This document shows, one piece after another, positions 12,741-45,749 of a stretch of DNA of 64,000 bases. The position numbers and the translations under genes were made by a program. The stretch comes from Escherichia coli (GTDB lineage: Bacteria > Pseudomonadota > Gammaproteobacteria > Enterobacterales > Enterobacteriaceae): the NCBI RefSeq assembly GCF_051903065.1, contig NZ_CP178438.1, one strand, 5' to 3'. Below the pieces are notes generated by a model. That model did no database searches and was not told the origin of the DNA. It saw nothing but the letters and a program-made list of their open reading frames with translations. The first letter of the stretch is position 1, and every line of letters starts with the position of its first letter.

Positions 12741-13039
12741 AGTAATTTTACGAAGAGAAATAAGTGGATGTAAGTGAAGTTAGTCACATAAAGAGATAGC
12801 AGATTTAGCTAAAAAAAGGGAAATAACAGTCCATAAAGCGTTGACATTACTTTCTGTTCTACTAAGTAATTTCTCGCCGATAAACAACTAATATATTGAT
12901 ATTTAATAAATTATTGTATTTTACTGACAAAATGCCGAATTGAGATCATAAATAATCATGCAACAGGTTATGCAAATGCATAAATATGTGATGAATGTCA
13001 CTTATTTATTTCAATAAATATATCGCCTAAAAACAACGC

Positions 13040-35099: not shown

Positions 35100-36053
35100 T
35101 TAACTACGTAAAATCGCCGCTGCTGTGTCCTGATCGGTAACCAGTGCGTTGATATAACCGCCTTTCATTGCAGCGGCAATTGCTTCGGCTTTATTTTCTC
35201 CCCCTGCCACGCCAACCCGGACGGGTATGGTCTTCAGCGCGCTTAAAGGTAAGCCAATCAGTTCGTTATGTATTTTGATATCCGTGACAACGTCACCTTT
35301 TGCATCAAAAAAGTAGCCTAAAATGTCGCCAACCGCCCCTTTTCGGCCAATCATTAACTGTTCGCCCTGGCTGATATAACCGGAGCGAATGATCGTCGCG
35401 TCGTCTTGTTGACTCACGGCCCCAATGCCGACAATCGCCACATCCGCTGCTTGCGCGGCTAACAGAACATCTTTGACGCAATTTTCATTTTTTAGCGTAC
35501 GGGCAATGTCAGCGGAGGATGCCCGCAACGGAGCCGGAATAATATTCACACTGCACGCCGCGTTAAGCTGTCCGATACCCGTCATATAAGAACCGACGCC
35601 ACCGGAGAGCGTGACCAGGCGAATTTGCTGTGACGAAATAAAACCACTTAAGCGTTGCAGCGTATTCATGGTTGCCTCGCCAAAACCAATCGCCAGCATC
35701 TGTTGTGGTTGAAGTAAACTCATCAACATATGCGCCGCGCCTATCCCCAGTCGCCCGCCGACATCAGCATCCGCAAGCCCAGGGATCACCCGGACATGTT
35801 GCAGCGAAAACTGACTACGTAATTGTGTTTCATATTCCAGACAGCCTTCAAAGCGAGAATTAATCTGCACGCGAATGATGCCGGACTGATGCCCTTTCTC
35901 CAGTAATCGCGACACTTTCAAACGGGTCAGGCCGAGACGATCGCTGATCTCACTCTGGGTCAGCCCGTCGTGGTAGTAAAACCACGCGATCCGCGCGACC
36001 TGTTCTTCTTCACACATTCCCTGTTCTGAAATTGCCGAATCGTTGATTGTCAT
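35100..36053 (-). CDS. lsrR: lsr operon repressor LsrR (SorC family)
   Basis: 317 aa; N-terminal HTH plus sugar-phosphate-binding domain. Confidence 0.95.
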
Positions 36054-36121
36054 AATTCATTCTTCACTTTGAACATATTTAAATCTTTAATGCAATTGTT
36101 CAGTTCTTGCGCATTTATATC

Positions 36122-36137
36122 TGTGATGGCAACCACA
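36122..36137. promoter_or_regulatory. CRP-like site in the lsrR-lsrA intergenic region
   Basis: TGTGA-tggcaa-CCACA (consensus TGTGA-N6-TCACA); a second half-site aaatTGTGAtct lies at 36189-36200. Confidence 0.4.
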
Positions 36138-36237
36138 GTTTGACTCTACGAGTATGAACAAACGCAACCGTGAAAATCAAAATAGCATAAATTGTGATCT
36201 ATTCGTCGGAAATATGTGCAATGTCCACCTAAGGTTA

Positions 36238-36270
36238 TGAACAAATTAAAAGCAGAAATACATTTGTTCA
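36238..36270. promoter_or_regulatory. Candidate LsrR operator overlapping the lsrA promoter
   Basis: Perfect 9-bp inverted repeat TGAACAAAT-N15-ATTTGTTCA, 30-65 bp upstream of the lsrA start; a third TGAACAAA copy at about 36155. Confidence 0.4.
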
Positions 36271-36301
36271 AAACTCACCTGCAAAACTGAACGGGGGAAA
36301 T

Positions 36302-37837
36302 ATGCAAACGAGTGATACCCGCGCGTTACCGCTACTTTGCGCCCGCTCGGTTTATAAACAGTATTCAGGGGTTAATGTCCTGAAAGGCATCGATTTTACG
36401 TTGCACCAGGGGGAGGTCCACGCCCTGCTCGGCGGCAATGGTGCCGGTAAATCGACGTTAATGAAGATTATTGCCGGTATTACCCCTGCTGATAGCGGTA
36501 CGCTGGAGATTGGGGGCAACAACTACGTCAGATTAACGCCAGTTCATGCTCATCAGCTGGGTATTTATCTCGTTCCCCAGGAACCGCTGCTTTTCCCAAG
36601 CCTGTCGATAAAAGAAAACATCCTGTTTGGGCTGGCAAAAAAACAGCTCTCCATGCAGAAAATGAAGAACTTGCTGGCGGCGCTGGGCTGCCAGTTTGAT
36701 CTGCATAGTCTGGCAGGATCGCTGGATGTCGCCGATCGCCAAATGGTGGAAATCCTCCGCGGGCTGATGCGCGACTCGCGGATTCTGATCCTCGATGAAC
36801 CTACCGCCTCGCTTACCCCTGCGGAAACCGAACGCTTGTTTAGTCGCTTGCAAGAGCTGCTTGCTACTGGCGTGGGTATTGTTTTTATCTCGCATAAGCT
36901 GCCGGAAATTCGCCAGATTGCCGATCGAATTAGCGTGATGCGCGACGGAACCATCGCCTTAAGCGGCAAAACCAGCGAACTGTCTACCGACGACATTATT
37001 CAGGCCATCACGCCAGTGGTACGGGAAAAACCGCTCTCTGCCAGCCAAAAATTATGGCTGGAGTTACCTGGTAACCGCCCACAACATGCCGCCGGAACGT
37101 CGGTGCTGACACTGGAAAATCTGACTGGCGAAGGTTTCAGGAATGTCAGCCTGACGCTCAATGCCGGAGAAATTCTGGGCCTGGCTGGGCTGGTGGGAGC
37201 CGGACGCACAGAACTGGCCGAGACGCTCTATGGTCTGCGTACTTTGCGTGGCGGACGCATTATGCTGAATGGTAAAGAGATCAATAAATTATCCACTGGA
37301 GAACGTTTACTGCGCGGTCTGGTTTATCTGCCGGAAGATCGCCAGTCATCCGGACTGAATCTCGATGCTTCGCTGGCCTGGAACATCTGCGCCCTTACTC
37401 ATAACCTTCTTGGATTCTGGGCGAAAACCGCGAAAGATAATGCCACCCTGGAACGTTATCGTCGGGCGCTGAATATTAAATTTAACCAACCGGAACAAGC
37501 TGCACGGACATTATCCGGTGGCAACCAGCAAAAAATCCTCATTGCCAAATGCCTGGAAGCTTCGCCGCAAGCATTGATTGTCGATGAGCCGACGCGCGGC
37601 GTGGATGTCTCGGCCCGTAATGATATCTACCAGCTGTTGCGCAGCATCGCCGCACAGAATGTGGCAGTGCTGCTTATCTCCTCTGATCTGGAAGAGATCG
37701 AACTGATGGCAGATCGTGTGTATGTGATGCATCAGGGCGAAATTACCCACTCTGCACTGACCGGGCGCGATATTAATGTCGAGACTATTATGCGCGTTGC
37801 CTTCGGCGATAGTCAGCGTCAGGAGGCGTCATGCTGA
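36302..37837 (+). CDS. lsrA: AI-2 ABC transporter ATPase LsrA
   Basis: 511 aa, duplicated ABC domains ([17 protein letters not shown]). Confidence 0.95.
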
Positions 37838-42585: not shown

Positions 42586-43903
42586 AGACCAAAATATAAT
42601 TTGACCTGTGAAACGACTACAGGCATTTAAATTCCAGTTAAGACCCGGTGGTCAACAGGAGCGTGAAATGAGGCGCTTCGCAGGCGCATGTCGTTTCGTT
42701 TTCAATCGTGCTCTGGCACGTCAGAATGAGAATCATGAGGCCGGTAATAAATACATCCCTTACGGGAAAATGGCTTCCTGGCTGGTTGAGTGGAAAAATG
42801 CCACTGAAACGCAATGGCTTAAAGATGCCCCGTCACAGCCATTGCAACAGTCACTGAAAGACCTTGAGTGGGCTTACAAAAACTTCTTCCAGAAGCGGGC
42901 TGCTTTTCCCCGATTCAAAAAGCGGGGACAGAATGATGCATTCCGCTACCCGCAGGGCGTTAAGCTCGATCAGGAAAACAGCCGTATTTTTCTGCCGAAA
43001 CTGGGCTGGATGCGCTACCGGAATAGCCGTCAGGTCACGGGTGTTGTGAAAAATGTCACGGTCAGCCAGTCCTGCGGTAAGTGGCACATCAGTATTCAGA
43101 CAGAAAGTGAAGTATCAACTCCGGTTCACCCTTCAGCATCAATGATCGGGCTGGATGCTGGCGTGGCTAAACTCGCCACGCTGTCAGATGGCACAGTCTT
43201 TGACCCTGTAAACAGTTTTCAGAAAAACCAGAAGAAGCTGGCGAGACTTCAGCGACAGTTCAGCCGCAAGGTCAAATTCAGCAACAACTGGCAGAAGCAG
43301 AAACGCAAAATACAGCGACTGCATTCCCGTATCGCAAATATCCGCAGGGACTACCTTCACAAAGTCACAACGACCGTCAGCAAAAACCACGCAATGATAG
43401 TCATTGAGGATTTGAAGGTCAGCAACATGTCAAAGTCAGCAGCGGGTACGGTCAGCCAGCCGGGGCGCAATGTCCGGGCAAAATCAGGTTTAAACCGTTC
43501 GATACTGGATCAGGGCTGGTATGAAATGCGTCGCCAGCTTGAGTACAAGCAGCTCTGGTGTGGCGGTCAGGTGCTTGCTGTTCCGCCAGCGTACACAAGC
43601 CAGCGTTGCGCGTGCTGTGGTCATACAGCGAAAGAAAATCGCGTGTCACAAAGTAAATTCAGATGCCAGGTATGTGGATATACAGCGAACGCCGATGTAA
43701 ACGGCGCTCGTAACATTTTAGCGGCGGGGCACGCCGTTCTTGCCTGTGGAGGGATGGTGCAGTCAGGCCGCCCGTTGAAGCAGGAACCCACCGAAATGAT
43801 TCAGGCGACAGCCTGAACGTAGCAGGATCCTCGTCATTCAGGGCGTGGAGGATGTCAACAGTTTTATCTACAATTGGGGTAACGCGCTGACGGGAGTAAA
43901 AAA
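42101..43903. mobile_element. IS200/IS605-family insertion element (divergent tnpA and tnpB); ends approximate
   Basis: Y1/HUH transposase and TnpB encoded back to back, filling the interval between the lsrG stop and the tam start codon. Confidence 0.6.
42608..43816 (+). CDS. tnpB: TnpB (IS605 OrfB family, RuvC-like RNA-guided endonuclease)
   Basis: 402 aa; RuvC-I IGLDAGV, RuvC-II IVIEDL, Ruv[14 protein letters not shown], and zinc finger CACCGH...CQVCG. Confidence 0.8.
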
Positions 43904-45580: not shown

Positions 45581-45749
45581 GGTTATCTTCAGGCGTGGAA
45601 AAGTCGCCCTATTAAACGTGATTACGATCACATTCTCAAGACACGACTTACAAATTACCTACAAGCTTACAACATTAACAGGCGCTGCATGTGGCACCTG
45701 TTAATGATAAAGGCACACAGGATGTTGTAACTAATATAGTGAAATAAGA

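Follow-up and report, generated by a model that had tools for sequence, protein, structure and literature searches.

The question raised by the lsr locus of Escherichia coli is where the repressor LsrR binds on the lsrA promoter. The gene for LsrR and the gene lsrA, for the ATPase of the autoinducer-2 (AI-2) ABC transporter, are transcribed divergently from a 248-bp spacer in the 64,000-nt stretch of E. coli DNA analyzed here (contig NZ_CP178438.1), which is designated as the window. A preliminary description of the window proposed a perfect inverted repeat just upstream of lsrA as a candidate for the LsrR operator. This repeat is designated here as O_A. The analysis indicates that the spacer probably holds two CRP-dependent promoters arranged back to back, that a 33-bp LsrR operator with the structure TGAACA-N21-TGTTCA overlaps each of them, and that O_A is very probably the landing site of LsrR on the lsrA promoter.

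The spacer differs from that of E. coli K-12 MG1655 at only 2 of the 248 bases (36111 and 36153), neither of which is in the elements discussed below. Thus, published work on K-12 is directly applicable. The K-12 coordinate is the window coordinate plus 1,565,188.

Two Perfect Copies of a 33-bp Palindrome

The operator elements of the spacer are the following.

36238-36270, no strand assigned: O_A, the lsrA-proximal predicted LsrR operator, a perfect TGAACA-N21-TGTTCA of 33 bp, which is the inverted repeat of the preliminary description.
36070-36102, no strand assigned: O_R, the lsrR-proximal LsrR operator, also a perfect TGAACA-N21-TGTTCA, inside the published p-lsrR box and absent from the preliminary description.
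36155-36162, plus strand: O_M, the left arm of a middle operator, a third copy of TGAACAAA, 83 bp upstream of O_A.

The arms of O_A were originally described as 9 bp long, perfect and separated by 15 bp, and this is what the sequence contains: TGAACAAAT at 36238-36246 and ATTTGTTCA at 36262-36270. The repeat finder lengthens the arms to 13 nt at 92% complementarity. A lone 9-bp inverted repeat is only weakly significant by itself; one perfect case with a spacer of 3-30 bp appeared in 4.7% of Markov-1 randomizations of the AT-rich 248-bp sequence. The hexamers TGAACA and TGTTCA are found in the spacer five times in perfect form, while 0.17 are expected, and five or more were reached in 8 of 200,000 simulations. 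O_A and O_R are the sole two perfect TGAACA-N21-TGTTCA sites within the window, and their 33-mers were independently reported by the repeat finder as a direct repeat, 168 bp apart.

The p-lsrR box, which was shown to be protected by LsrR, extends from -237 to -197 relative to the lsrA ATG (PMC5137460), corresponding to 36065-36105. According to PMC8487509, which relays Xue et al. (2009, Cell Res 19:1258), this box is defined by the motifs AACAAT and AAGATTTAA, and the p-lsrA box by AAAACT and AAAACTGAA. Both critical motifs of the p-lsrR box fall inside O_R, as the reverse complements of 36095-36100 and 36079-36087, respectively. Because O_R, inside a published LsrR box, has the same architecture as O_A, O_A is likely to be an LsrR operator as well.

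Conservation among Enterobacterales

From species-representative genomes, 80 lsrR loci were collected, and the spacer between lsrR and a divergent lsrA was extracted for 68 of them, from about 20 genera of Enterobacterales. Of these 68 spacers, 63 carry a perfect O_A, four have one mismatch and one has two, compared with 3 perfect sites in 20,700 random sequences modelled on those spacers. This difference argues for an operator function of O_A. The genera include Escherichia, Citrobacter, Kluyvera, Superficieibacter, Serratia, Mangrovibacter, Photorhabdus, Xenorhabdus, Yersinia, Pantoea, Rahnella, Ewingella, Hafnia, Morganella, Prodigiosinella, and Affinibrenneria. O_A is also perfect in Salmonella and Enterobacter cloacae, whose sequences were fetched separately. 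O_R has at most one mismatch in the lineages where it was detected.

Among 40 non-redundant O_A sites, the arms are invariant (2.0 bits per position), and the 21-bp spacer is 89% A+T with variable sequence. The conserved unit is the pair of 6-bp arms with the 21-bp spacer, and the 9-bp arms are peculiar to Escherichia. The 20 bp downstream of O_A, the region of the published AAAACT motif, hold 0-0.4 bits per position, and in a 12-genus alignment the region 3′ of O_A is unalignable beyond Escherichia, with the exception of the Shine-Dalgarno sequence.

The position of O_A is fixed on the upstream side. In the same 40 sites, TAnnnT is observed at -8 to -3 relative to O_A, and the T at -3 is invariant (2.0 bits). 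The GTGA of a CRP half-site lies 44 bp upstream of O_A in 53 loci and 45 bp upstream in 12 loci. Between O_A and the start codon of lsrA there are anywhere from 10 to 174 bp. Being fixed relative to the CRP half-site and the -10-like TAnnnT but variable relative to the start codon, the repeat is tied to the promoter and not to the ribosome-binding site, which again supports its assignment as an operator.

Some distant loci were also inspected. Beside lsrA and lsrK in a low-GC genome (locus L087, 2322-2500), a 40%-identical LsrR homolog is accompanied by aGAACA-N21-TGTTCt, 23 nt before lsrA. At the locus of a 45%-identical homolog (L084, 2285-2500), TGATCA-N21-TGATAA is found with several more copies of TGATCA, which suggests a switch in half-site specificity. 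As both loci keep N21, the 21-bp geometry seems to outlive even a change of the half-site. At two high-GC LsrR-like loci (L085 and L086), no recognizable site was found, and as their gene context differs, they are uninformative.

LsrR and the Half-Site of DeoR

LsrR belongs to the SorC/DeoR subfamily; it scores 1.3e-46 with the NCBIfam model for DeoR and 3e-28 with PDB entry 8r7y. The operator of Bacillus subtilis DeoR at dra-nupC-pdp is ATTGAACAAAATTTCAATTACCAATTTACATATGTTCAA, in which TTGAACA receives base-specific contacts from R34 and R39, and the DeoR tetramer, a dimer of dimers, spans the whole operator (PMC11229326). In the sequence alignment, these two arginines correspond to R44 and R49 of LsrR, which are invariant in 17 LsrR orthologs. 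Since TTGAACA is read by the homologous DeoR and the contacting arginines are conserved in LsrR, the arms of O_A are likely to be recognized by LsrR. The LsrR of this strain differs from the crystallized K-12 protein at two residues, S79 for R and D258 for N, neither of which is in the DNA-binding helix.

CRP Sites and Predicted Promoters

The elements discussed together with the operators are the following.

36122-36137, no strand assigned: CRPII, TGTGAtggcaaCCACA, centre 36129.5, matching 9 of the 10 core positions of TGTGA-N6-TCACA; named CRPII in PMC5137460.
36190-36211, no strand assigned: CRPI, with the left half-site aaTTGTGATCt, centre 36200.5; the left half is perfect and the right half is poor.
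36230-36235, plus strand: predicted lsrA -10 hexamer TAAGGT, beginning 29.5 bp from the CRPI centre.
36095-36100, minus strand: predicted lsrR -10 hexamer AACAAT, beginning 29.5 bp from the CRPII centre, in class II geometry.
36215-36222, plus strand: TGTGCAAT, a published putative CytR half-site and the site of a G-to-A promoter-up mutation (PMC5137460); not conserved between genera.

The expression of lsr requires CRP according to the literature. CRP activates both lsrACDBFG and lsrR, and of 14,923 Enterobacteriaceae genomes with lsr, about half have CRP sites close to lsrA (2026 preprint). The near-consensus CRP site of the preliminary description is the one that fits the published CRPII, and the second CRP-like half-site, aaatTGTGAtct at 36189-36200, fits the published CRPI. 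TGTGCAAT was placed "very close to CRPI" (PMC5137460), and the two names were assigned to 36122-36137 and 36190-36211 on this basis. In the 12-genus alignment, CTGTGA..CCACA of CRPII is conserved, at a fixed 19-nt distance from O_R, and GTGATC of CRPI is invariant.

Matches to at least 9 of the 10 CRP-core positions number six in the window, against 2.0 expected (about 0.008 per 248-bp spacer), and six or more were reached by 1 of 100 shuffles. The five matches other than CRPII, each 9/10, are at 12773-12788, 12987-13002, 43045-43060, 45617-45632, and 57185-57200; two of them are 214 bp apart.

In a class II CRP promoter, the CRP site is centred at -41.5 and takes the place of the -35 element. 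The distance of 29.5 bp to a -10-like hexamer on both sides of the spacer is compatible with this class. On the lsrA side, O_A begins 2 bp after the conserved predicted -10 TAnnnT, in accordance with the original statement that the repeat overlaps the likely lsrA promoter. On the lsrR side, GAACAATTG on the minus strand, in the -10 region, is invariant across lineages. A generic scan of the region for sigma-70 promoters and terminators gave no match, and no -35 hexamer was recognizable; this null result is uninformative because the predicted promoters are CRP-dependent and without a -35 hexamer.

The published promoter-up mutation changes TGTGCAAT to TGTACAAT by G-to-A at 36218. It was attributed to the putative CytR site and gave an 8- to 14-fold gain with LsrR control kept (PMC5137460). 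The same substitution converts TGCAAT to TACAAT, which comes close to the -10 consensus and lies about 13 bp upstream of the native -10 hexamer predicted here. The improved hexamer could explain the gain of the TGTACAAT mutant. On this explanation, LsrR would keep its control since the operator is still downstream of the new hexamer.

Weighing the Operator Assignment

The published motifs on the lsrA side have to be placed on the window.

36270-36291, plus strand: motifs of the published p-lsrA box, AAAACT at 36270-36275 and AAAACTGAA at 36283-36291, as quoted in PMC8487509.

The preliminary description had called for a comparison with published LsrR and CRP footprints. The published CRP sites agree, but there is tension with the LsrR motifs on the lsrA side, which adjoin O_A on its 3′ side and share base 36270 only. 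This tension is the first of several observations that weigh against the assignment proposed here. In a selection for high lsrA-direction expression after error-prone polymerase chain reaction, 12 of 14 clones gained expression via mutations in the p-lsrR box, especially in TAATGCA (36088-36094) (PMC5137460). No O_A mutations were reported in that selection, which is unexpected if O_A is the main operator, and O_A alone may be insufficient for lsrA repression. Mapped 5′ ends of lsrA and lsrR were found neither in full-text literature searches nor in the supplements of a genome-wide E. coli start-site paper, in which searches just a primer for 5′ rapid amplification of cDNA ends of lsrR was encountered. 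An alternative -10 candidate for lsrA, TACATT, is present at 36259-36264; with a start near 36271, CRPI would then belong to class I, at about -70.5, and O_A would cover -33 to -1. CRPI meets the CRP consensus as a half-site only, its right half matching about 1 of 5 consensus positions. Finally, the inner half-sites of the LsrR operator are AT-rich only, with no defined sequence.

Some of these observations can be accommodated. Mutations of the start site at O_A could also damage the promoter, and may for this reason be absent from the selection. As mutations in the O_R region raise lsrA-direction expression, O_R helps to repress lsrA, and this distal role fits cooperation between phased operators. 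Even with TACATT as the -10 hexamer, O_A would still overlap the lsrA promoter.

It is unlikely that the true LsrR site on the lsrA side is the published p-lsrA box (AAAACT-N7-AAAACTGAA), with the repeat being a promoter element or the site of another protein. The motifs were stated by the laboratory that footprinted LsrR and were used to predict further targets (PMC8487509), and in later work of related groups, too, LsrR sites are regarded as AT-rich and non-palindromic. Against this stands the distribution of the motifs, whose conservation is already lost in Citrobacter and Salmonella. The box would have no room in Yersinia, where O_A lies only about 12 bp from the position equivalent to the ATG. 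The partial conservation of GAACGG (36289-36294) is accounted for by the adjoining Shine-Dalgarno sequence. AAAACT begins at the last base of the TGTTCA arm, so that a mutation of AAAACT would also damage the repeat, and the counterpart motifs on the lsrR side fall within a TGAACA-N21-TGTTCA site. The AT-rich motifs quoted for the lsrA side probably mark just the edge of the operator. An everted pair, TGTTCA (36265) and TGAACG (36288), was considered as the core of the published box and rejected; its spacing differs, and the conservation of GAACGG has the origin mentioned above.

The repeat could also act as an RNA hairpin in the lsrA 5′ leader, for attenuation, stability or translation control, instead of as a DNA operator. 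The 41 nt of 36234-36274 indeed fold at -7 kcal/mol with a z-score of -3.4, and none of 200 shuffles folds as well. This explanation is nevertheless very improbable: the arms are invariant with no compensatory changes, the pairing outside Escherichia is 6-7 bp around a 21-nt AT-rich loop, the motif recurs at O_R and O_M and in both orientations relative to transcription, and the predicted start site is inside the left arm. No credible match was found in Rfam, where the top hit (E = 0.8) reached 22 bits and the threshold is 70. The frequency of lone 9-bp repeats in randomized spacers, given above, would be compatible with a palindrome that arose by chance in the AT-rich DNA between the genes, but a chance origin is excluded by the second copy of identical geometry 168 bp away, these two being the only perfect copies in 64 kb, and by the perfect sites at 63 of the 68 loci, compared with 3 in 20,700 random regions. 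The architecture of O_R, the conservation, the fixed register to CRP and the -10 hexamer, and the DeoR half-site together support the original proposal of the repeat as an LsrR operator.

No paper linking LsrR to a TGAACA palindrome was found in the searchable literature; curated regulon databases may already record it. In papers on avian pathogenic E. coli (APEC), the "LsrR motifs" are NNNTTTTNN--NNNTTTTNN, TCCG, and GGAAAA, and LsrR sites are treated as AT-rich with no palindrome. These motifs are too degenerate to test and are unrelated to the conserved palindrome.

The Middle Copy and Operator Phasing

The third TGAACAAA noted further upstream in the preliminary description is present as the left arm of O_M. 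In Salmonella, Kluyvera, Serratia, Photorhabdus, Xenorhabdus, and Morganella, a full TGAACA-N21-T(A/T)TTCA is found at this position. The right arm there is somewhat weaker (TATTCA or TTTTCA), and the site abuts the CRPI half-site. The nominal right arm in E. coli (ATAGCA, 36182-36187) matches at 2 of 6 positions; in Escherichia and Citrobacter, the right arm of O_M has decayed.

The distances between sites are 83 bp in 32 cases, 84 bp in 2, 85 bp in 1, 167 bp in 4, and 168 bp in 24, with single outliers of 16 and 67 bp. The spacing is thus 83-85 bp in 35 cases and 167-168 bp in 28, and 83 and 168 bp correspond to 8 and 16 helical turns. Given this whole-turn spacing, one may speculate that the operators cooperate. 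If one tetramer fills one 33-bp operator, such cooperation would need tetramer-tetramer contacts.

Other repeats were observed in the spacer. The 17-nt direct repeat CTAnnnnTATGAACAAA (36146-36162 and 36229-36245, 82% identity) has its copies 83 bp apart, and the middle site appears to hold a duplicate of the -10-like element plus left operator arm. At 36066-36080 and 36210-36224, a 15-nt inverted repeat, ACTTTGAACATATTT / AAATATGTGCAATGT, extends over a long range with 87% complementarity. It includes TGTGCA, a one-mismatch copy of the TGTTCA arm, which has no partner hexamer 27 bp away and is not conserved. TGATCT-N21-TGTCCA at 36195-36227 was rejected as an operator; it has three mismatches, overlaps a CRP half-site and is not conserved, and it was treated as a chance match.

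Proposed Mechanism

In the proposed mechanism, complexes of CRP with cyclic AMP at CRPI and CRPII would recruit RNA polymerase to both promoters; the activation is known from the literature, and the geometry is predicted. On the lsrA side, the position of CRPI before TAAGGT would place a class II start near 36241-36243, with O_A at about -4 to +29. The lsrR side would be its mirror image, with CRPII before AACAAT (read from 36100 down to 36095), a predicted start at about 36088, and O_R at about -14 to +19. The outer hexamers would be read by the helix-turn-helix domains of the LsrR dimer of dimers, as DeoR reads TTGAACA. The LsrR tetramer would clamp both hexamers of each operator, as the published footprint indicates for the lsrR side and as is predicted for the lsrA side, and a tetramer on O_A would block open-complex formation or promoter escape.

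Phospho-AI-2 reportedly changes LsrR oligomerization, to judge from the title of a 2013 article by Wu et al. cited elsewhere. Such an alteration of the oligomeric state would cause the repressor to leave the DNA. As the arms are 27 bp apart and a dimer cannot span them, only a tetramer is expected to bind, and a change in oligomerization would release it.

A bolder version of this proposal is possible, but it is put forward only tentatively and is rather doubtful as a whole. The real LsrR operator would be a DeoR-like 33-bp palindrome in two or three copies that share one face of the helix at spacings of 83 and 168 bp; tetramers on O_A, O_M, and O_R would act together, perhaps through looping, and so close the back-to-back pair of class II CRP promoters; and the p-lsrA box would have been misplaced.

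Flanking Genes and Distribution

The genes and the translation signal flanking the control region are the following.

35100-36053, minus strand: lsrR coding sequence, repressor of the SorC/DeoR subfamily; scores 618.9 bits with NCBIfam equivalog NF011947 (cut-off 486).
36302-37837, plus strand: lsrA coding sequence, ATPase of the AI-2 ABC transporter; scores 950.9 bits with NCBIfam equivalog NF011967 (cut-off 586).
36293-36297, plus strand: lsrA Shine-Dalgarno sequence GGGGG (GGAGG in other genera); ACGGAGG is invariant in the 12-genus alignment.

The NCBIfam matches of both flanking open reading frames bear out the recognition of the region, in the preliminary description, as the lsrR-lsrA divergent control region. 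Behind lsrR lies lsrK, and lsrC and lsrD follow lsrA; all exceed their NCBIfam equivalog cut-offs.

A 601-bp stretch around the spacer was found in 4,188 of 5,426 complete E. coli genomes. The other 1,238 (about 23%) have no match to the lsr control region. In NZ_AP022177.1, just 34 bp of lsrA are left, adjoining an autotransporter gene. These observations suggest that the lsr locus was lost or replaced in particular E. coli lineages.

Significance of the Operator Definition

The lsr switch serves as the model of how AI-2 is taken up and its signal quenched, and it is often chosen as a part for synthetic-biology circuits. The control region and the CRP/LsrR system are already known, and the known logic, CRP activation with LsrR repression relieved by phospho-AI-2, is unchanged; what is new is a sharper definition of the operator, not a new kind of system. 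With this definition, lsr promoters could be designed rationally around a 12-bp core whose spacer is always 21 bp and whose register to the CRP site and the -10 hexamer is constant. It would explain why lsrA-direction expression is derepressed by mutations in the distant box on the lsrR side. Searches for genuine LsrR targets would also gain a pattern of much higher specificity than the AT-rich hexamers now used in studies of pathogenic E. coli. If the p-lsrA box is misplaced, the targets predicted from AT-rich motifs (ahpCF, katG, cysN, and cysP) need re-examination.

Comparison with Known Systems

The operators proposed here and the published p-lsrR and p-lsrA boxes concern the same protein, the same spacer, and the same two promoters, and the p-lsrR box wholly contains O_R. 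They differ in that each published box consists of two short AT-rich motifs with no palindrome, whereas the conserved unit here is TGAACA-N21-TGTTCA. The likeness to class II CRP promoters extends to both lsr directions, in each of which the CRP centre precedes a -10-like hexamer by 29.5 bp with no recognizable -35 element; the lsr promoters differ in that their class is assigned from the spacing and that CRPI has one good half-site.

The lac operators O1, O2, and O3, the gal operators OE and OI, and the E. coli deo operators are multi-operator systems whose repressors form loops. The lsr spacer resembles them in having several operators at whole helical turns (83 and 168 bp) and in the influence of the distal operator O_R on repression of the other promoter. 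It differs in that looping by LsrR is only a proposal, and one LsrR tetramer may use all four of its DNA-binding domains on one 33-bp operator.

A parallel in protein and half-site is B. subtilis DeoR, which is homologous to LsrR and is likewise a tetrameric dimer of dimers. In both systems TGAACA and TGTTCA, inverted relative to each other, form the outermost half-sites, and the operator overlaps the promoter. The spacer between the outer arms is 24 bp for DeoR and 21 bp for LsrR. The DeoR operator has a clear inner palindrome, TTGAA-N-TTCAA, whereas the inner half-sites of LsrR are just AT-rich, and the single operator of DeoR contrasts with the two or three phased copies at lsr. Both repressors are released by a phosphorylated sugar, which is deoxyribose-5-phosphate for DeoR and phospho-AI-2 for LsrR.

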